From positions 1,426,001 to 1,490,000 of the forward strand of contig OZ025791.1 of assembly GCA_964019425.1 (NCBI GenBank): a stretch of 64,000 bases of DNA, in the 5' to 3' direction. Under the pieces are notes generated by a model. It was given only the letters and a program-made list of their open reading frames with translations, was not told the origin of the DNA and did no database searches. The position numbers and the translations under genes were made by a program. This DNA is from Flectonema sp. DT1601. Lineage: Eukaryota. Every line of letters starts with the position of its first letter. Within the stretch, counting starts at the first letter, position 1. Of the stretch, positions 52,747 through 64,000 are shown one piece after another.

Positions 52747-55023
52747 ATGCAAGTTTTCGTGACGTGTCCGGATTTAGGACTCCCAGCGGTGTCAGTCACA
52801 GTTGGTGCTGATTCTGTTGTGAGCGACGTGTTGACGGCAGCGGCTGGTGAGTGGGATGTCGATCCGGATGAAGTTGAACTGTCGTTCGCTGGTGATGCCC
52901 TTTGCGACAGTGATCGGCTAGCAGATCGTGGAGTGGGTGCAGACAGCGAGTTTGAAATGCGGCAGAAGCTGGTTCGGATCTTCGGTAAATGCTGGTTTGT
53001 TGATGATAAAAAAAGGGAGAAGCTGCTTCTTTGGATGAGAGACCACATTACGGAGGACTTATGTCTGGACACTCCCACATTCTCGGTGGATGGTTGCCTC
53101 ACTATTGACGAAGGGTTGCTTCCTTCAGATGCCAAACAGATTTCCTTCCGCCATTCAAATTGCAACAACACAGTCATCTCACAAGTTACTGCTATTGAAG
53201 ATAAGTTCTGTAATAGTTTAGAAATCACCTCTGTTGACCTTTCAGGTCTTGGTAGTGTCACAAGTATTGGAGATCATTTTTTGCGTGTGTGTTCACAACT
53301 CACTTCTGTTGACCTTTCAGGTCTTAGTAGCGTCACAAGTATTGGAGATTCTTTTTTGTATGAGTGTTCACAACTCACTTCTGTTGACCTTGCAGGTCTT
53401 AGTAGTGTCACTAGTATTGGAAGTTATTTTTTGTTACTTTGTTCAGAAATCACTTCTGTTGACCTTTCAGGTCTTAGTAGTGTCACAATTATTGAGGAAG
53501 GGTTTTTGTCTAGTTGTTCACAACTCACTGCTGTTGATCTTTCGGGTCTTAGTAGTGTCACAAGTATTGGAAATTATTTATTGTCTTGTTGTTCAGAAAT
53601 CACTTCTGTTGACCTTTCACTTTCAGGTCTTAGTAGTATCACACGTATTGGAAGTTATTTTTTGTTTCGCTGTTCAGAAATAACTTCTGTTGACCTTTCA
53701 AGTCTTAGTAGTGTCACCAGTATTGGAAATTATGTTTTGTCTGAGTGTTCACAACTCACTTCTGTTGACCTTTCAGGTCTTAATGGTGTCACCAGTATTG
53801 GGTATGAATTTTTGTCTGATTGTTCACAACTCACTTCTGTTGACCTTTCAGGTTTTAATAGTGTCACCAGTATTGGAAATAATTTTTTGTTACGTTGTTC
53901 AGAAATCACTTCTGTTGACCTTTCGGGTCTTAGTAGTGTCACCAGTATTAGGGATGGGCTTTTGTCTAATTGTTCACAACTCACTTCTGTTGACCTTTCG
54001 GGTCTTAGTAGTGTCACCAGTATTAGAAATTATTTATTGTCTAATTGTTCACAACTCACTGCTGTTGACCTTTCAGGTCTTAGTAGTGTCACTAGTATTG
54101 GAAGTTATTTTTTGTTACGTTGTTCAGAAATAACTTCTGTTGACCTTTCAGGACTTAGTAGTGTCACAAGTATTGGAGATTCTTTTTTGTCTGAGTGTTC
54201 ACAACTCACTTCTGTTGACCTTTCAGGTCTTGGTAGTGTCACAAGTATTGGAGATCATTTTTTGCGTGTGTGTTCACAACTCACTTCTGTTGACCTTTCA
54301 GGTCTTGGTAGTGTCACAAGTATTGGAGATCATTTTTTGCGTGTGTGTTCACAACTCACTTCTGTTGACCTTTCAGGTCTTAGTAGTGTCACTAGTATTG
54401 GAAGTTATTTTTTGTTACGTTGTTCAGAAATAACTTCTGTTGACCTTTCAGGACTTAGTAGTGTCACAAGTATTGGAGATTCTTTTTTGTCTGAGTGTTC
54501 ACAACTCACTTCTGTTGACCTTTCAGGTCTTGATAGTGTCACAAGTATTGGAGATCATTTTTTGCGTGTGTGTTCACAACTCACTTCTGTTGACCTTTCA
54601 GGTCTTAGTAGTGTCACAAGTATTGGAGATTCTTTTTTGTCTGAGTGTTCACAACTCACTTCTGTTGACCTTTCAGGTCTTGGTAGTGTCACAAGTATTG
54701 GAGATCATTTTTTGCGTGTGTGTTCACAACTCACTTCTGTTGACCTTTCAGGTCTTAGTAGTGTCACAAGTATTGGAGATTCTTTTTTGTCTGAGTGTTC
54801 ACAACTCACTTCTGTTGACCTTTCAGGTCTTGGTAGTGTCACAAGTATTGGAGATCATTTTTTGCGTGTGTGTTCACAACTCACTTCTGTTGACCTTTCA
54901 GGTCTTAGTAGTGTCACAAGTATTGGAGATTCTTTTTTGTCTGAGTGTTCACAACTCACTTCTGTTGACCTTTCAGGTCTTGGGAAGATCAGCACATCAA
55001 TGTTCTTGAAGCAGATGCTCTAA
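52747..55023 (+). CDS. N-terminal ubiquitin-like domain + BspA/TpLRR-type leucine-rich repeat protein
   Basis: MQVFVT...ELSFAGDAL..DRLADRGV resembles a ubiquitin fold; 23 full 25-aa repeats TSVDLSGLSSVTSIGxxFLxxCSQL; no signal peptide or TM. Confidence 0.85.
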   Translation: MQVFVTCPDLGLPAVSVTVGADSVVSDVLTAAAGEWDVDPDEVELSFAGDALCDSDRLADRGVGADSEFEMRQKLVRIFGKCWFVDDKKREKLLLWMRDHITEDLCLDTPTFSVDGCLTIDEGLLPSDAKQISFRHSNCNNTVISQVTAIEDKFCNSLEITSVDLSGLGSVTSIGDHFLRVCSQLTSVDLSGLSSVTSIGDSFLYECSQLTSVDLAGLSSVTSIGSYFLLLCSEITSVDLSGLSSVTIIEEGFLSSCSQLTAVDLSGLSSVTSIGNYLLSCCSEITSVDLSLSGLSSITRIGSYFLFRCSEITSVDLSSLSSVTSIGNYVLSECSQLTSVDLSGLNGVTSIGYEFLSDCSQLTSVDLSGFNSVTSIGNNFLLRCSEITSVDLSGLSSVTSIRDGLLSNCSQLTSVDLSGLSSVTSIRNYLLSNCSQLTAVDLSGLSSVTSIGSYFLLRCSEITSVDLSGLSSVTSIGDSFLSECSQLTSVDLSGLGSVTSIGDHFLRVCSQLTSVDLSGLGSVTSIGDHFLRVCSQLTSVDLSGLSSVTSIGSYFLLRCSEITSVDLSGLSSVTSIGDSFLSECSQLTSVDLSGLDSVTSIGDHFLRVCSQLTSVDLSGLSSVTSIGDSFLSECSQLTSVDLSGLGSVTSIGDHFLRVCSQLTSVDLSGLSSVTSIGDSFLSECSQLTSVDLSGLGSVTSIGDHFLRVCSQLTSVDLSGLSSVTSIGDSFLSECSQLTSVDLSGLGKISTSMFLKQML
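53227..54982 (+). repeat. 75-bp coding tandem repeat (~23.4 copies); the 3' part has a 150-bp higher-order unit
   Basis: tctgttgacctttcaggtctt recurs every 75 bp (one unit has a 6-bp insertion). Confidence 0.95.
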
Positions 55024-55485
55024 GGCAGATGCTTGAGGAGATTGAGAAGGGCAGCTCATCTCTCCATTTAGGTAGATAATACGACAGTCTCTGTGGTTGT
55101 TTTAGAAAACAGATGTGTGTTCGCTCACACGTTCTTAACAAGTGTTTACTGGTTGCCACTGACCACCTTTTATTTTTGAGATGTTCCTACTCCCTGGCAT
55201 GGGTAAGCACAAAGCTAAACCCTGTTGTTCTTTTATTTTAAATTGTTTTCCATCCTTCATCATCTTCTTTCTTTCATCAGGTGCAAAAGGAATGCGTATC
55301 TAATTCCCGAGTACAAAGTTTTTAGAGATTTTCGCTATTGGTGTGCCTGATAATGTCATTTACGCTATTCACTAAAAGCAGTAACTTTTTTTTCGCTGGT
55401 TTGCACTCTACAAGTTACAAATTTTTTTTCGCTATTCACTACTAGTTACAACTCCACTGCCAAAAAAAAAATTTCCCCCTTTTTT

Positions 55486-56062
55486 GTCAATCGCAGAGTG
55501 TATACCTACACTAACATTACCTTTAGTCACTGTATCTCAGAACTAATGTTAAATTATCGTTATGTTGTCTATGATACAAAACATTTGTATTTTACGTACA
55601 AACTCGAACAGTTAACCCCCCTTTTTTCCCCCTTTTTTTCCCCTTTTTTTTCCCCCTTTTTTGTTCTGCTTGCCCCTTTTTTAATTTTGGAGCGGCATGA
55701 CCGAAGACAATCTTCTTTTCCCTCTTTTATTTCCAATCCCGTCGCCCCCGGGGATTTTAAGCAAGTAAATTGTAGGTGAAACCTACACTCTGCCGTATTA
55801 CATTATACCCTGGTTTTGGTTTCCCAGGGCTCACGATTAATTCAAAATTGAATAACTCGATTCCGTACTGCACTGAATGACAACAGAAAAAGAGATGTGT
55901 ATGCAGCTAAGTTAGAAACATTTATTATAATGTAAAGTATTTACGTCAATCGCAGAGTGTAAACCTACCTTTAGTCACTGTATCTCAGAACTAATGTTAA
56001 ATTATCGTTATGTTGTCTATGATACAAAACATTTGTATTTTACGTACAAACTCGAACAGTTA
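55486..56062. repeat. ~120-bp direct repeat (55486-55614 and 55945-56062) upstream of the Penelope-like ORF
   Basis: gtcaatcgcagagtgta...ctttagtcactgtatctcagaac...aaactcgaacagtta occurs twice; the copies differ mainly by an ~11-bp indel. Confidence 0.9.
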
Positions 56063-56135
56063 GCCCGTGACAGCTGGGGGGAGTGGAGTGTAGCGAGGGA
56101 ATGGCACTTTGCCACTTACCGGCTGTTGACCGTAT

Positions 56136-57942
56136 ATGCGGGTTATCACGTTTTCTTTTTGTTTTAGGTTTTTTGTTAGTAGTGAGATGTGCTACGTTTA
56201 TTTATTTCACAACGTGTTTCGCCATCTTGAACTACTTTTAATACAGTTTTCGTATCATCAAATACCAGCATATACGGCTATTGACAAAGAGCCGCCCCCC
56301 CTTCCTGGTGCGTTATATTGATGACTTCCTTTGCTGGGGGCATGAGCCTCCACCCCCAAGCATCTACAAGATGGACTACAAAGACACTACGATTAGTGAA
56401 GACCACGTAGTCTTTTTGGGAGCAAGAATCAGAATTGAAACAAAGGAAAAGAGAAAGTTTATCAGGTTATCTATAAGCCGAAAGGATTGGTCTTTTCGCC
56501 CTTTGCAATATGTACATAGTAATTCAACTATGCCGGTGTCTATACCGAAAGGAGTGGTTAAAGGTGCTATGTTTAGAGCTGCAATGATTTGTAATAATTT
56601 ACCTGATCTTTTTGTTGAATTTGAATTTATACTTTATAGAATGTGGAAAAGAGGTTTTAAGAAACAAGACGTAGCATTTGCTTTTCGTGAATTCTGCGAT
56701 GAGTTTTATAAAGCCTACGATTCCACATATAAGAGATTATTTTCTTTAGTTCATGTTGTCTTTGGTAAATTAAACAACCCTCACTCTTACCATTTTCCAA
56801 AAGAAAGACAGTTTATTGTTTACCCGCCTAAAGCCGTAGTGTTGATTCCAGAAGAACCAATTGTTCAAGAAGGAAAAGTGGATTACTTTACAATTGACCA
56901 CACGATATGGTATATGGAAGAAGTTGGTCTTTACCCTGAAGACGTGAACCGTTTTGGTAATTGTTTCTTTGAAGCAGTATCGAAACAAATCTTTTACTTC
57001 TTTGATGCAGCGACGCTGCGTGAATTCACCAGTGCTGAGTTAGTAGAGTATAGTGATAAATATAAAAACTTTGTACTCGGTAATTACGACGAATATGCAC
57101 TTGGAATGGGTTTTGATGGTGTGTGGGCAGACCATGCAGCCATACAAGCCTTATCAAATGTATTGGGTGTTAGTTTTTTCTTCCTAAGTATGGACCCTTA
57201 TGAGCAAAAAGACTCCGCTTACTTTGTCGCTCCCGACGCACGGTCTACTTTTTTACTTGTCAGGGGGTTCATCATACTCGGGCACCATGCAAATGTTCCA
57301 TCTGAGCACTTTTTCCCAATACTAGGGCCATACGATTGGTCAGTAATCAATGATTGGTGTATAGAGTATACTGAGGTCATTCTCAATGGCCTGTTTAATT
57401 TGGTTACCTGTTCTGGCTTTACTGATGTGGAGAGTGAAAACTTACCTGACGAAGCCGGGGTACTCTTTGATAAATTGCGTGAAGGAGGTTTAGAAATCAT
57501 ATTACCTTTATTTGTTTTAAACGAAAAGGACATAACGAGTAGATTCTTATCGAAAAGTATCGTCAATGAAACAGATTCTAAATCCTGCAAGGTGCTCTCT
57601 CCAATGAAAGTACATACCGAGTTAGAACAAAAAGGTGTAACCACCACTTGCCCACAAGGTCACGATCTTGAAATAGTTCTCATTAATAAACCAGTTTTTT
57701 GTGATTTATGTGATTCAAATTATTTCTTTGGACAAATATTTGAATGTCGTCTCCCTTGTAAAGGTGAGAGTTTAACATGTGATTGGAATGTTTGCTTGAA
57801 TTGCGTTGGAATATACTTTTGTTGTGGATGTGGCATGCGTACGACGAAAGCAGGCACATGGTTTGCGGGAAGTCGAGGTTTGCAAATCCATCAGTTGACT
57901 TGTGAACCTTTCCTGCTTTTGAGTCAAACCAACCATAACTAA
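56136..57942 (+). mobile_element. 5'-truncated or degenerate Penelope-like retroelement ORF: RT C-terminal half + OTU-like cysteine protease + Cys/His zinc fingers
   Basis: FLVRYIDDFL (RT motif C), VVFLG, and a PLE-type thumb (YVHSNS...KGVVKGAMFRAAMICN...F...LYRMWKRGF). Then OTU-like GNCFFEAVS...LRE...WADHAAIQALS...EHF, followed by CPQGH..CDLC..C..C..CLNC and CCGC...HQLTC. Possible frameshift in the C-run at ~56295-56301. Confidence 0.7.
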
Positions 57943-59097
57943 GTTTATGGGATGGGCTTTGCTGGTAGTGTGCTACGAACCAGCGTATTCTTGTCATGTT
58001 ATTTATCTTTTCTTTTTTTCTCACCCCTGTAACTACCCACCCAGATAATTTTTATTGGTTACCCATTAATGCATTAATGTTTTCAAGCTGTAACGACCTG
58101 CAGGGCATGGGATGCTCAACCTGTAGTGCGTGGTCCCCGGGTCAATTTGACTTGACAGCATTTCTTTCTCTGGTAGTTTATTTAAAGCATGCGATTTTGT
58201 GTGGACAGAATCCAGTTATAATGATTCATGTCTAATTTGTTGCGTGTTAACCTTGATTTATTTATCCAAGTCCCCCCTTCCTGGTGTTCATCTTTTTCTA
58301 TGGTTAATTTTCAAGACAATATAATGTATTAATTAAGTACTCATGAGTTTTATAAAAGCTGTTACGGTAACATAATTGATAATGGATTGATTGAAAGCCA
58401 ATAACACAAACGGTCAAGGATGTGATGACTTGGGAAATGATAAAAGTAATCTTTCTGGAACTTCTGCTCAGTACATGCAAATGCATCTTGACAGGCGGGA
58501 ACCCTTCAGGCAGTACTGCGCTCTTGATAATTCAAAGTAGCCTTAAAAAAGCTCTCATACCTGCATGAGTTAGATACCCTGATAACCCGGTCAGAAACAG
58601 GAGTGTCGCTTGCGACCAGGCTGTCTGTAACTCGCAGGTGTCTTGACTTTGAAATTTGGTTGGAATGACGTGTAAGAGGACAACAGTTCTCTGTAAGGTG
58701 ACTCAGCCCTGCACACATACCGTTCTTTGCATGCACTCAGTAAATTTTTCAGAGGCTGATAACTATCAGGACCTGAAGAACAACCCAACCTTTCCGTGAG
58801 TACTTGTCTTTGCCTAATCTCGTCAAGCCAGATGAACATCATACAAACGTTCCTAATCATAAACGTTTTGCTTTCTCTCTAGGCTTTTACTCTTATTCTC
58901 AATCTCTAAGATGCCCGGAAACATAGTTGAAACTCAACCTGCTGCCACTGAAACTCAGCCTGCCTCAGCTTTGGCTGACAAGACCTAGTATTGAGGGAAC
59001 CTTTCAATCCTTTGATGCACTTCGCGAGGGCAACCCTCGCTTCTTGTTCTTCGGGAAGGGGGTTTAAGACAAGCCACATAGTGGGGAAAAGGGTGAC

Positions 59098-59565
59098 ATG
59101 GATGCTTCTGGGCGAGTTCCCAGTTGCCTTTGCCATCACGGGAAGGCCAAGGGGAAGTGTTCAGCCCACATGGAACGCAACATAAAGGTTGCCTTCAAAA
59201 GTAAGGAAGCCGTGTCGAAGTTTAAGAAACTTCGAATGACATCATCGGAAGAGAGGTACGAGGAAGTGTTCGACACCCTCGATCCTGAATTTCAGGAGTA
59301 CCTGAAGGGGAAAGACCCAACATCATGGGCAACGTGCCAGATAAGAGCACGGAATTATGGACATACAACATCCAACCTGACGGAGAGCTTTAACGCCTCC
59401 TTATCAAAGATAAGGGCGAAAAGTATCCTCGGCCTGTTAAACGGGTTACTAAGCCAGCTTTCTCGTTGGTTCTATGAACGGCACATGGAAGATACAGGCA
59501 ACGACGACGGAGTACTAGAGCACGTGCATCTAAGCCTCACGTTACAGTGTTATTCCTGTAAGTAA
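59098..59565 (+). pseudogene. Mutator-like (MULE) transposase fragment
   Basis: CSAHMERN (CxxH) and YGHTTSNLTESFNASL motifs of the MULE DDE domain; the N-terminal catalytic part and TIRs are not seen. Confidence 0.7.
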
Positions 59566-59742
59566 GTTAGGGGAGGTATATGAAGGTATTCCTTGCAAAA
59601 ACATTCAAACTAATTTTGTATTGTAATCCCCACAGCTTCAGTAATTAAGGGAGGGCTGCAATTCGAAGATGACTAAATATTACTTCCGAAAAGTTTAATC
59701 ATCATTAATCATAAAAGTATATCAGTCATTCCTTCAAAAAAG

Positions 59743-59814
59743 CACCCACCGTGGGGATCGAACCCACGACCATTGGATTAAAGGTCCAACGCTCTACCAC
59801 TGAGCTAGGTGGGC
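59743..59814 (-). tRNA. tRNA-Lys(UUU) with non-canonical C33
   Basis: Minus strand GCCCACC TA GCTC AGTGGTA GAGC G TTGGA CCTTTAA TCCAA TGGTC GTGGG TTCGATC CCCAC GGTGGGT G folds as a full cloverleaf with intact A and B boxes. Confidence 0.9.
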
Positions 59815-59836
59815 CACGAAAACTACAGTTTTCACG

Positions 59837-59878
59837 AAAGCTACAGTTTCTGTACTTTATTGTTTCTGTACTTTATTG
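59837..59878 (+). other. Two nested spliced-leader relics at the 5' end of the LINE
   Basis: aaagctacagtttctgtactttattg (59837-59862) followed immediately by tttctgtactttattg (59863-59878). Matches the conserved 3' end of the euglenozoan SL (ACAGTTTCTGTACT(A/T)TATTG; diplonemid ...AAAGCTACAG..., recalled from memory). Confidence 0.85.
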
Positions 59879-59909
59879 TGTGTGATTTACAAAAAAAAAA
59901 AAACTAAAA

Positions 59910-61274
59910 ATGTCCGGAACACAAGAATCGATGGTCGTGCAGCAACAAGAGCAAGCACAGCAATCAATGATGCAACAGCAGCAAGCACAGCAATTAATGG
60001 CACAGCAACAGCAGGCACAACACTTAATGATGCAACAACAGCAGCCGCAACAGCCAACACAAAGCCAGCCGGTACAACAACAAGCGCAGAACAATTCCAA
60101 CAATTGCTTTTTACATGGCAACTGGACGCTTGAGACTTTAAGTCAGTCGCAAACTCACCTTCCCAACAATGTCCCACCAATCTCCCCCTTTTCGTTTATG
60201 AGCTCACCAATGATAGCGTTTAAACAGTATCTCAGAATAACAAATCTGTATTTTAAAACAATAAACATTTTAAGTTTAAAAGAAATGCACTTCACAGTTT
60301 CAAAAGACAATGTTGTAAACGTTTTTTCTTGTTTATTGGAAATCAAAAAAGAATGTGCAGCTGATTTCTTAGAAATATCCGGCCAACACGGCATTTTCTT
60401 TTCCGAACACAAAAGCACTCAACACCTCTCCTCCTACTACACAATTGTGTGGACCCCTGACACACCTTACACCCAGCTTAAAAAGATAGCAATCGATCTC
60501 AATAAAGACCCAAAAAACAAAGGAGCCCTCGGGCTCACAATGTACCAAGGAAGAAGCCTTGGGATACGAATTAAAAAAGAATCAGAAACAAACTTTCGTT
60601 CAAATTTTGGAGTAAAATGTCCGACTTATTTCGAGATAAGCGGCATAAGCAAAGAGAACGCAACGTCATTTGACGTTGAATTTTTTTTTGATTTAATGAA
60701 AAAAAAAATTAAATACTGTTATAAAAAAAAAAGGGAAGAGTCACATGTTGTGAGCTCGTACGAGAATCTGCAGTCTTGCGGATCAGTAATCGTTAAAAAA
60801 ATAACTCAACCCTCAAAAGATGAAAGAAGAATTGAAAAGAACTCAATAGAAACGAAAACAGACCAAACTGAAAAAAAAGATATTAACGAAAAAGGAAAAG
60901 GAAAAGGAAAAGGGAAAGGGAAAAAAGGAAAGAAAGGAACTAAGGGAGAGAGCGGTAAAGGAAAAAAAACTGTTTTGTCATCACCGTCAACCTCAGTAAC
61001 CCCGTCAATAGAACAAACGGACATTTTAAACCAGCTAAAATTATTGTTAGATGCACAAACAAAGCATCTAACAACAAAGATCATTGGCACTTTTCTAGCC
61101 GATGATCCGAAAAAGCAAGCAGAAGCTTGGGATGCGGAAATAAACCCGCAAGAAAAAGAAGGTTTTCTACAAGGATCGATGGACGATGACATCGATCTTG
61201 TGAAACAGAAGCTGGACAAAGAAAACGATGGTGATGACAACACAAAAAGAAAAAAAGAAGAACCTCCGAATTGA
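59910..61274 (+). CDS. LINE ORF1 (454 aa): poly-Q N-terminus, basic GK-repeat, no evident zinc knuckle
   Basis: ORF directly upstream of and in frame with the APE-RT ORF; GKGKGKGKGKKGKKG basic tract. Confidence 0.8.
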   Translation: MSGTQESMVVQQQEQAQQSMMQQQQAQQLMAQQQQAQHLMMQQQQPQQPTQSQPVQQQAQNNSNNCFLHGNWTLETLSQSQTHLPNNVPPISPFSFMSSPMIAFKQYLRITNLYFKTINILSLKEMHFTVSKDNVVNVFSCLLEIKKECAADFLEISGQHGIFFSEHKSTQHLSSYYTIVWTPDTPYTQLKKIAIDLNKDPKNKGALGLTMYQGRSLGIRIKKESETNFRSNFGVKCPTYFEISGISKENATSFDVEFFFDLMKKKIKYCYKKKREESHVVSSYENLQSCGSVIVKKITQPSKDERRIEKNSIETKTDQTEKKDINEKGKGKGKGKGKKGKKGTKGESGKGKKTVLSSPSTSVTPSIEQTDILNQLKLLLDAQTKHLTTKIIGTFLADDPKKQAEAWDAEINPQEKEGFLQGSMDDDIDLVKQKLDKENDGDDNTKRKKEEPPN

Positions 61275-64000
61275 CTGTTTCCTTATAATTTATATCTTTT
61301 TTATTTCTCGAACCTTCTTTTGTGTGGAGACATCCACCCGAACCCCGGTCCACAAAAAAAGCAAAAAAACAGTGAGCTGAGAATTGTATCTTTTAATGTT
61401 TGTGGTCTCAAGTCGAAATCCGACGAAATAACTTTTTTTTTACAAAATATAAAACCTGACCTATTCATGGTTCAGGAAACATTGTTAAAGGATAACGACG
61501 AAACCATTAATTTTAATGGGTACAAGTGTCTCAGAAGAGACCGGAGAATTCCGGTAAAAAAAAACGCACCCGTCAGAGGTGGTGGATTGGCAATTTTTTA
61601 CAAAAACAGCCTAAGCGTGACAGCATTCGCTGTTGCACAACACAGCCAAGACTGCACTGAAGTCCAGGGCATTTTTGTGTCAAATTCAAAACAAACTGTA
61701 AGGGTATACAACGTGTACAGACCACCGGTAAGCCAATCAACCTCTGATAGGTCCCCCTCTTTTGATATGAATAGTATTTTTCTTTTTAATAAAAATGATA
61801 AAGTAGTTATCGCGGGGGATCTTAACGCAAGGCATCCACTCTGGGACCCGAGAGACGAGTCAAACACAAATGGCCATGAAGTCTCGACTTTTCTAAACAA
61901 TAACCAGTTTGAATGCTGCAACGTTAAGGAAATCCCCACAAGACCAAAATCAAACACTTCTCCTGATGTTGTTCTCCAAAAAAACTGTGATATTGGCAAC
62001 TGGACGACGCTCGAATCTCTATCAAGCGATCATGTACCAATGTATTTTTCTCTTTCTTTTTTTTCGGATTCGATAAACAGAGCGAACGGTGCAACGGTTT
62101 TTTCTTATAATTGGAACAGGGCACTGTGGCCAAACTACAGCTCCCACCTCGAAAGGGTGGCGAAGCGACTTGAAAAGATTCAAGATAACCAGAAATTATC
62201 AATGGAATTCATAAAAGAATTAAAAAATGCGTTACGGATCTTTGTACCAAGGATTTATTTGAAAGGAAAGTCACCAAAGAAGTGGTGGAACACGACGGTT
62301 GCATCTAAGTTTCATGAGTTCAACGAGTCACATTGTGACCAACGGGATGATCTTACAGATCTGTCGCAACAGGGAAAGTCAATTTTTACATCTTTAAAAA
62401 AAGAACTCAAAAAAACAGTCGTTGATGCCAAGAATCAACAGTTTAAAAAAAGCCTTAAAAAAGACAAGTCTATTATTGAAGCTTTTGAAGACATAAGAGG
62501 CCTTGATGGAAGATCAAGACTTAAAGAAATTCGAGAAATCACCTGTGGTGATAAACTTGTTACAGATGATGTGGAAAAAGCATCAATTTTCAATAATCAA
62601 TTTTTACAACGTGTTGGTAACATCAAAGAAAAAACAAAGACAAAGAAAATAGAAACAGACCCTTCTGATTTTACACCATTTACACAACATGAACTTAGAA
62701 TCCAATTGAGAGGAATGGCTCTGGAAAAGAATTCACCAGATGGCGTTCAAGGTATTCTTCTTAACCATTTGGGACCTAGAATGCTAAACATTTTACTTAA
62801 GATTTTTAACAATTCGTGGAAACATTCTGTTGTCCCGAGTGATTGGAAAGACACACACTGGATCCCTGTTTTAAAAAAAGGAAAACCCCCAAACCTCCCC
62901 TCTTCATATAGAATGATCTCTCTCACCCCTTTTATTGCGAAATTGATGGAAAGAATGGTGAAGGAACGTCTTACGTATTTTATGCAATCACCGAATGAAA
63001 AGAAAACTGACGGTATTGGTTTCAACCAAACTTCTTATCGGAAAACGCGTTCTTGCCGGGAAAACATCCTATATGTTACGGACAGACTTAGATTTCTTAA
63101 ACACCAAAAAAAGTCAGCGGCCCTTGTTCTTCTTGATATCGAAAAAGCTTTTGATAGTGTGAACCATGATCTTCTCCTTCAAAGGATGGTAGATCTTGGA
63201 ATACCAAAACATTTTATAGCCTGGATTCAGGCCTTTCTTAAAAAACGAAGAGCAGCGGTTGTTGTTAATAATGAAAAAGGTTCTTACCACAATGTTTATT
63301 CTGGCGTTCCACAAGGAACAGTTTTGTCGGCTCTACTTTTTACTCTGTATATTGAAAAAGTCGCAGAAAGACTAGATATTACGGTTGCTAAGTATGCGGA
63401 TGATATTGCTTTTGTAGTTGATGATGAAGGGAAAGGTTTTACTTATCATTTGGCAAAAACGAAATATTTCTTTAATGAGATTGAAAAGGATCTAAACGAA
63501 TTAAAATTAAAAGTAAGTTATGAGCCTGACAAAACAAAACTTGTGTATTATCCCTACTCCCCAAATTCCCCACTACAAACACCTTTCACTTTTACTTCAA
63601 ATTTAACAAAAAATATTGTTCCATGTGTTGATAGCGCCAAGCTTCTTGGGGTGATCCTTGATAACAAGCTCGATTGGAAACAGCATATCTCGTATATTTG
63701 TAGAAGAGTTAATCTTCGCTTAAGGTATCTGAAGCTTGTCGCATCAAAAGCATGGGGACAGTGTACTGCAACTTTGCGTGAGGTGTATGATTTGTATATT
63801 CGACCTGTCATAACAAACTCGTGTGAAGCTTTTTATCCTGAAGTTAGGTATAAAAAGATTCACATGGACAGGCTTCTCTCTTTACACCTTAGGGGTGCGT
63901 GCTATGTCTTAGGTGCCTTACCACCAACAAGGGAAACAAGAGATAAGATCTTTTTTGAGGCACAACAACAAAGTATCAACACCCATTTGAGACTTGAAAC
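61275..64000 (+). CDS. LINE ORF2: 2A-like peptide + APE endonuclease + reverse transcriptase (3'-truncated by window; absent from the ORF track)
   Basis: APE motifs SFNVCGL, MVQET, RGGGLA, NVYRPP, AGDLNARHPLW, SPDV and SDHVP. RT motifs SYRMISLT, LLDIEKAFDSVNH, GVPQGTVLS, KYADDI and KLLGVILD. All lie in the same frame as ORF1. Confidence 0.9.
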   Translation, partial: MFPYNLYLFYFSNLLLCGDIHPNPGPQKKQKNSELRIVSFNVCGLKSKSDEITFFLQNIKPDLFMVQETLLKDNDETINFNGYKCLRRDRRIPVKKNAPVRGGGLAIFYKNSLSVTAFAVAQHSQDCTEVQGIFVSNSKQTVRVYNVYRPPVSQSTSDRSPSFDMNSIFLFNKNDKVVIAGDLNARHPLWDPRDESNTNGHEVSTFLNNNQFECCNVKEIPTRPKSNTSPDVVLQKNCDIGNWTTLESLSSDHVPMYFSLSFFSDSINRANGATVFSYNWNRALWPNYSSHLERVAKRLEKIQDNQKLSMEFIKELKNALRIFVPRIYLKGKSPKKWWNTTVASKFHEFNESHCDQRDDLTDLSQQGKSIFTSLKKELKKTVVDAKNQQFKKSLKKDKSIIEAFEDIRGLDGRSRLKEIREITCGDKLVTDDVEKASIFNNQFLQRVGNIKEKTKTKKIETDPSDFTPFTQHELRIQLRGMALEKNSPDGVQGILLNHLGPRMLNILLKIFNNSWKHSVVPSDWKDTHWIPVLKKGKPPNLPSSYRMISLTPFIAKLMERMVKERLTYFMQSPNEKKTDGIGFNQTSYRKTRSCRENILYVTDRLRFLKHQKKSAALVLLDIEKAFDSVNHDLLLQRMVDLGIPKHFIAWIQAFLKKRRAAVVVNNEKGSYHNVYSGVPQGTVLSALLFTLYIEKVAERLDITVAKYADDIAFVVDDEGKGFTYHLAKTKYFFNEIEKDLNELKLKVSYEPDKTKLVYYPYSPNSPLQTPFTFTSNLTKNIVPCVDSAKLLGVILDNKLDWKQHISYICRRVNLRLRYLKLVASKAWGQCTATLREVYDLYIRPVITNSCEAFYPEVRYKKIHMDRLLSLHLRGACYVLGALPPTRETRDKIFFEAQQQSINTHLRLE
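61311..61352 (+). other. 2A-like (StopGo) motif NLLLCGDIHPNPG-P
   Basis: aac ctt ctt ttg tgt gga gac atc cac ccg aac ccc ggt cca, against the consensus D(V/I)ExNPG|P (His at the Glu position). Confidence 0.75.

Follow-up and report, generated by a model that had tools for sequence, protein, structure and literature searches.

In a 64,000-nucleotide (nt) stretch of the Flectonema sp. DT1601 genome (contig OZ025791.1, positions 1,426,001 to 1,490,000 of the forward strand; henceforth the window), we found a multi-copy APE-type retrotransposon without long terminal repeats (a non-LTR element) in which the first open reading frame (ORF1) ends at an in-frame TGA, while the same frame continues through a 2A-like peptide into an endonuclease and a reverse transcriptase (RT; together ORF2). 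Judging by the sequence of this copy and the protein ends of others, the junction is real, common to the copies and unusual. The best reading, to which we assign a probability of roughly 0.4 as a judgement and not a computed value, is that a few ribosomes read through the UGA and that the 2A-like peptide then frees the enzyme by StopGo. More tentatively still, this would make the element a diplonemid long interspersed nuclear element (LINE) with neither a promoter nor an ORF2 start of its own: a bicistronic mRNA would be capped by spliced-leader (SL) trans-splicing, programmed UGA readthrough would dose ORF2, a His-type 2A peptide 25 codons later would free the enzyme, and insertion would possibly target the 5' edge of tRNA genes. 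If true, a cellular mobile element would here use two successive recoding events.

The junction, its copies and the 2A-like leader

ORF1 (59910..61274, forward strand; 454 aa) has a poly-Gln N-terminus, a conserved core (approximately 60363-60647), a basic GK-rich stretch and an acidic tail, and gave no Pfam match. It is closed by CCG AAT TGA at 61266-61274, after which the frame goes on as CTG TTT CCT: 25 codons (61275-61349) lead to the NPG of the 2A-like motif, its Pro follows at 61350-61352, and then come the APE and RT domains. The TGA itself (61272..61274, forward strand), read directly from the sequence, has the context AAT-TGA-CTG-T, and the stop, a possible CUG start and the 2A-like peptide all lie within 81 nt. 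There is no ATG between the stop and the Asn motif of the endonuclease (SFN, 61389-61397); the earliest in-frame one, at 61467, lies inside the domain and past that motif. An earlier reading of the letters alone (the sequence-only reading) had described both the end of ORF1, with its continuing frame, and the position of this ATG, and both descriptions are exact. An out-of-frame 50-codon ORF from the ATG at 61228 also crosses the junction, with no sign of relevance.

Downstream of the stop, the ORF2 frame is unbroken for 908 codons and leaves the window at 63998. It encodes an APE endonuclease with intact motifs (61386..62042, forward strand; Pfam PF03372/PF14529, Exo_endo_phos at 1e-14) and an RT (62874..63650, forward strand; PF00078, RVT_1 at 7e-35) with YADD at 63393 and PDB matches to R2 and LINE-1 ORF2. 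Near-identical copies are dispersed: a 90% cluster of ORF1 contains four variants (one of them 5'-shorter) on six contigs, some of which may be repeat assemblies, and P0032 is a 92-aa frameshifted piece of ORF2 beginning at the same internal Met. The ORF1 variants differ by a substitution, by a 10-residue duplication plus a substitution, or by a shorter N-terminus; the same Asn is the last residue in all four, which suggests that the stop was carried through recent amplification. These other copies are known by their protein ends, the TGA codon having been read in the present copy alone.

The shared end in four of four variants rules out a private nonsense change or an assembly error; the sequence-only reading had named a private mutation, with a sense codon in most copies, as what would overturn it, and the copies do not bear this out. 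Of the check it proposed, conservation of stop and spacer across copies and related species, the present data cover the position of the stop, which these variants share, and the core of the leader, which recurs in Flectonema neradi (see below); the codon was seen in one copy. TGA is also a true stop in this host. Across 13 long host frames (some of which may end in introns) we counted 138 TGG and no in-frame TGA in 11,250 codons, and four of the 13 frames terminate at TGA; the host thus uses the standard code, and an alternative code with TGA as Trp is ruled out.

The two-ORF arrangement appears to be older than these copies. The ORF1 core aligns with ORF1 of an APE-RT family of Diplonema papillatum (P0004 and P0177-P0190) with a score of 66, reached by none of 1000 core shuffles and by one of 1000 whole-protein shuffles. 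Within that family 11 of 16 proteins end at a shared ORF1 C-terminus, two diverge earlier and three are ORF1-APE fusions. Because most members (the 11) have a separately ending ORF1, two ORFs seem ancestral for the lineage. Searched as a profile against proteins of 376-2000 aa, ORF1 returned itself along with three clusters from D. papillatum, and no fused ORF1-ORF2 of the element's family turned up; the missing fusion is weak evidence, since the intact ORF2 of the same genome was also absent from both protein searches. A single-sequence ORF1 search matched only itself.

These observations bear on the possibility that a single-ORF element has a non-autonomous subfamily in which a nonsense change became fixed; such copies would make no ORF2p and be moved in trans. 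In favour of this, other copies are seen as protein ends only, and fused masters could be missed just as intact ORF2 was in both protein collections. It is opposed by the ORF2 frame, open throughout its 908 codons, by the apparent ancestry of two ORFs in the D. papillatum family, and by a search that found ORF1 and no fused form; we consider it very improbable.

The 2A-like leader (61275..61352, forward strand) has 25 codons up to the Gly, CTG first, with a predicted skip before the Pro at 61350-61352. Its core, GDIHPNPGP, has His where the class A core GD(V/I)ExNPGP has Glu and so departs from the canonical form, and it is preceded by a Leu-rich stretch (four Leu at -19 to -10). Among 149 representative relatives, 73 carry NPGP just upstream of an APE-type domain (of 74 NPGP matches, one was C-terminal and was dropped), and His occupies the Glu position in 25 of the 74, suggesting that the His-type 2A is a stable natural class. 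In F. neradi, P0025 and P0174 have the identical CGDIHPNPGP core, and the P0174 transcript shares FY..LLL.CGDIHPNPGP; the same core is listed for amphioxus CR1-36_BF (PMC12338488 supplement). By homology, then, the 2A peptide is real, its place ahead of APE is ordinary among relatives, and its skipping activity is predicted. The sequence-only reading, which had likened the peptide to those of L1Tc/ingi, holds on this point. Given the conservation with F. neradi, the stretch after the stop is probably translated.

P0174 is the closest relative found (319 of 921 ORF2 columns identical). With D. papillatum as the other near relative, and with the SL sequence described below, it points to a diplonemid host. 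Quick RT trees, built without named clade references (no named Ingi), join the element to Flectonema with support 99 and this pair to four further rows with 95, outside a large 2A/RNase H-motif group; the three diplonemid rows come together with support of only 54. No ORF1 was found for the Flectonema relative, and DNA of relatives was not confirmed in metagenome, viral or prokaryote collections.

Routes into the ORF2 frame

Under the favoured reading, the element would be transcribed within a host polycistronic unit, and an SL added upstream of ORF1 would give an SL-capped bicistronic RNA. Most ribosomes would halt at the UGA and a small share would likely read through it, whereupon the 2A peptide would likely skip the Gly-Pro bond and release an APE-RT protein starting at Pro. 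The expected outcome is abundant ORF1p, little ORF1p-2A and scarce free ORF2p. LINE-1 ORF2p prefers its own RNA (cis preference); if the same holds here, ORF2p must come from the bicistronic mRNA. Entry into the ORF2 frame must also lie upstream of the 2A helix, because the conserved peptide otherwise could not act. Readthrough gives such an entry directly and matches the in-frame layout and the stop, i.e., a UGA followed by C and in frame with a downstream ORF, as in programmed UGA readthrough signals; termination at UGA-C is weak (PMC9841425). Both the way in which LINEs translate ORF2 and the role of the 2A peptides at its N-terminus are described as open questions (PMC3894237), and readthrough, if true, would give this 2A a clear job, namely separating ORF1p from the enzyme.

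We surveyed metagenomes for the His-type 2A pattern, which had been piloted on 122 2A loci of a viral collection, and obtained at least 120 matches; all counts that follow are among the matches listed. An upstream in-frame stop was present in 102 and a downstream APE in 69, and 27 formed an intact set (APE, at least 500 open codons, stop visible). Intact leaders were 36-177 codons long (median 98), all longer than the element's 25 codons, and 22 of the 27 had a Met of their own. An in-frame upstream ORF of at least 120 codons occurred in three of the 102 loci, each time with a Met-led leader, and none of the 27 intact ORF2s lacked a Met while also having a stop and a long ORF upstream in the same frame. 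A long ORF1 may have escaped notice, since at least 1400 nt of upstream sequence was available in only 22 of the 102 loci. The ORF1 profile, searched against six frames of 242 loci, found no match. Within the sampled loci the element's layout (25-codon leader, no Met, 454-aa in-frame ORF1) is thus unusual.

The usual plan, in which a Met-led leader carries the 2A ahead of APE (as in those 22 relatives and in Flectonema), would be kept if ribosomes terminated at the UGA and restarted on the adjacent CUG. This codon would replace the leader Met, and the resulting 25-residue 2A peptide would skip to give Pro-ORF2p. The CTG directly follows the stop, and upstream of the 2A helix there is no other near-cognate start; non-AUG codons are tolerated for reinitiation in caliciviruses, and the Asp-rich tail of ORF1 loosely resembles the CASQ2 case (both PMC5972666). 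The CTG is in frame, whereas starts used after long ORFs usually lie out of frame (PMC10275272), and the final 270 nt of ORF1 contain a single UGGGA, which at 144 nt upstream falls beyond the range of 40-90 nt given for termination upstream ribosome-binding sites (TURBS; PMC5972666). Reinitiation would further need frame, adjacency and loss of the AUG all together. We regard it as possible, if on the unlikely side.

Several findings weigh against readthrough itself. The stop is followed by CUGU and not by the stronger CUAG extension, and no stable RNA structure was found 3' of it (folding z of 0.30, -0.98, 0.35 and -0.20). One of the 13 long host frames also ends in UGA-C, and Met-less 2A leaders in the survey show no excess of this context (3 of 29 among the matches listed). 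The survey gave no second case of the element's layout among its 102 loci with an upstream stop, and the Met-led leaders of 22 of the 27 intact relatives account for a 2A peptide without any upstream ORF; the Flectonema relative likewise has a Met-led leader, with its Met 46 residues before the skip. Finally, we found no retrotransposon precedent for readthrough in the literature searched, whereas reinitiation has been reported for SART1 and LINE-1 (PMC5972666). The sequence-only reading had proposed readthrough followed by StopGo in a leaky UGA-C context. The proposal gains from a stop that is not private, a TGA that truly terminates in this host and a 2A supported by homology; the leakiness claim stands for UGA-C as a weak terminator and is tempered by the CUGU extension. 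No 3' stimulator was found, and CUG reinitiation fits nearly as well.

Readthrough might also be coupled to a His-type 2A that skips poorly, in which case mostly ORF1-ORF2 fusion would be made, or the peptide would stall and lower output further. Reports on the activity of His-type peptides conflict. The E-to-H 2A of a Crack element, Crack-15_BF, had very low activity (Odon et al.; PMC3708506), a further point against the favoured reading, and eukaryotic 2A-like peptides with 3-6 Leu, where the element has four, mostly lower protein abundance (bioRxiv 2026.06.17.732966). In a scan of P2A, by contrast, of all changes at the core positions D, E and N only E14H was tolerated, with a retained activity of 0.85 (bioRxiv 2026.09.24.754024), and His recurs among relatives (25 of 74) as a stable natural class. 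Readthrough with poor skipping strikes us as quite improbable.

Spliced-leader relics and RNA processing

A feature absent from the sequence-only reading is an SL with a relic on the element's 5' end. The 3' 26 nt of an SL (59837..59862, forward strand) match exactly the 3' end of the 'Euglenozoa 14' SL (PMC3795323) and are followed by a second SL copy, the relic (59863..59878, forward strand), which starts just past the SL-internal AG. The result is two tandem exact 16-nt SL copies, for which the mean expected by chance is 0.13 even with two mismatches allowed. A partial SL-like unit of 18 nt (59815..59832, forward strand), a near-duplicate of the next unit with one mismatch, putatively marks the 5' junction of the element, and the ATG of ORF1 is the first after the SL, 31 nt on. 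Tandem SL relics arising by repeated trans-splicing and retroposition are described in dinoflagellate retrogenes (PMC5585692), from which this element differs in encoding its own RT. We infer that an RNA spanning both ORFs went through SL trans-splicing and retrotransposition at least twice. The SL and relic at the 5' end indicate that the copied RNA was SL-capped and bicistronic, which argues against a separate ORF2 mRNA. They also indicate, independently of how the junction is decoded, that a trans-spliced mRNA served as the template of a LINE, whereas the reverse is reported for L1Tc/ingi of trypanosomes. In the literature searched (available in part) we found no description of SL relics on a diplonemid LINE.

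Full-length diplonemid-type SL copies also occur upstream of ORFs in giant-virus-like contigs (loci L243, L244, L246 and L247, all from a single viral contig of 238 kb, and locus L245; positions 1501-1522), and an A-rich AAAA(A/T)TGA motif lies roughly 25 nt before each copy. They may reflect viral SL mimicry or captured host mRNAs.

Processing of the RNA could in principle bypass the stop. SL trans-splicing near the junction would yield an mRNA for ORF2 alone, translated from a CUG (61275 or 61377), while a cis-intron over the stop would fuse ORF1 to APE. The host does trans-splice (an SL is present), the CTG at 61377 lies at the start of APE directly after an AG, and in the three D. papillatum fusions ORF1 breaks off 49 residues short, the outcome expected of an intron spanning the stop, and the sequence continues from a Pro that lies 16 residues ahead of the APE Asn; the joins of the three proteins show neither NPGP nor Met. 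These fusions resemble gene models in which an intron spans the stop and may be artefacts, whereas 11 of the 16 family members stop at the end of ORF1. No ACTAAC, ACTAAT or ACTGAC site occurs near the junction, though such sites precede many host AGs, and the first AG past the stop comes 54 nt later, within a GAG. The spacer is 75% pyrimidine, and we considered it as a splice tract, but its Leu, Phe and Tyr codons account for the pyrimidines. Splicing at the junction would moreover delete the 2A helix and leave its conservation unexplained, and the SL relics sit at the ORF1 end of the element. The separate trans-splice that the sequence-only reading had offered as an alternative is weakened by these relics and by the absence of a host-like acceptor close to the junction, and RNA processing as a whole appears unlikely to us.

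The element stands head-to-head with a host tRNA-Lys(TTT) gene (59742..59814, reverse strand; ARAGORN, Rfam), which is a genomic gene given the T-run terminator just past its 3' end. The 5' end of the tRNA directly abuts the SL-like stretch, placing this one copy of the element 0-22 nt from it. Insertion may be targeted to tRNA genes, although a single copy cannot show targeting; Dictyostelium TRE5 and Dp_NLTR-A insert just upstream of a tRNA gene (2-6 bp for Dp_NLTR-A; PMC5006619).

Relation to known elements and surrounding features

Among known elements, those of the Ingi clade of trypanosomatids (L1Tc, Ingi, Tcoingi and Tvingi) are likewise euglenozoan APE-RT elements with a 2A directly before APE (PMC3708506). 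The element behaves like Ingi/L1Tc in its 2A but departs from two Ingi features. The clade is described without ORF1 (PMC3894237), whereas here a 454-aa ORF1 has its own stop; and L1Tc RNA is unspliced and made from its own Pr77 promoter (PMC1874656), whereas the element's 5' end carries an SL and relic, with no ribozyme in an Rfam scan of 55000-64000. It further differs from the clade in having an in-frame stop and no AUG for ORF2. CR1-26_BF, CR1-53_BF and CR1-1_LG also combine an ORF1 with an N-terminal 2A in ORF2 (PMC3894237), although the CR1 2A is found some 40-80 aa from the start of an ordinary ORF2, with no in-frame stop or readthrough described in the available text (PMC3708506). Two proteins of the pseudoscorpion Cordylochernes carry ORF1p and ORF2p domains with a 2A-like peptide lying between them (bioRxiv 2026.06.17.732966); these are single predicted proteins, and the available text mentions no stop between the parts, whereas the element has one.

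LINE-1 and SART1 resemble the proposed RNA in being bicistronic and yielding low ORF2 without a separate mRNA (PMC5972666), and LINE-1 ORF2 initiation has been described as AUG-independent (PMC5009743). Both have an ORF2 AUG (after a 63-nt spacer, or in a UAAUG overlap), and the accessible parts of these sources mention no 2A, while the element has a 2A and no AUG. Nearer by descent, Flectonema P0174 has the same 2A core behind a Met-led leader, and the D. papillatum family has a homologous ORF1 core in proteins without NPGP.

The sequence-only reading had known of no description of its combination. That is upheld in part: we found no in-frame stop with a 2A and without an AUG in a LINE in the literature searched (Repbase and most subscription papers lie outside its coverage), nor such a combination in the available parts of PMC8310308, but ORF1 with a 2A-bearing ORF2 was already reported for the few CR1 elements above. 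Diplonemid transposons are left unclassified in PMC10161547, as far as its available text goes.

Searches for the fold and distant relatives of ORF1 gave little. The ESM Atlas had no usable match for ORF1; for the D. papillatum core its leads, below 0.9, pointed to clusters of RRM_1 (18% of members) and DUF4780. Confidence was low in the AlphaFold models of the ORF1 core (pLDDT 31 and 43), and no PDB fold matched them at E 0.001. The tails of ORF1 and of the D. papillatum ORF1s P0177-P0189 are Pro-rich with Asn last before the stop, a resemblance that may be due to chance. In the family of P0004 some members have an in-frame segment of 155 aa that is missing in others, and P0004 has, upstream of its ORF1 core, a stretch at about 135-210 ending in a Gly-Gly run, which we take to be ubiquitin-like.

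Elsewhere in the window, the long host frames of 1-55023 all lie on the forward strand, as does the element, which fits a polycistronic unit. One of them, a ubiquitin-like and BspA-LRR gene, contains repeats of 75 nt, and another, rich in Cys, contains repeats of 492 nt. A 566-codon frame at 56242-57942 combines an OTU protease domain (Pfam, 1.6e-06) with an RT-like YIDD close to the beginning of the frame; by its motifs we presume it to be Penelope-like. It is preceded by a 101-nt direct repeat (55518-55618 and 55966-56066, 448 nt apart). A short frame at 59068-59637, presumably a fragment of a Mutator-type transposase by its motifs (it gave no Pfam match), ends near an apparent GT-AG intron at about 59522-59637.

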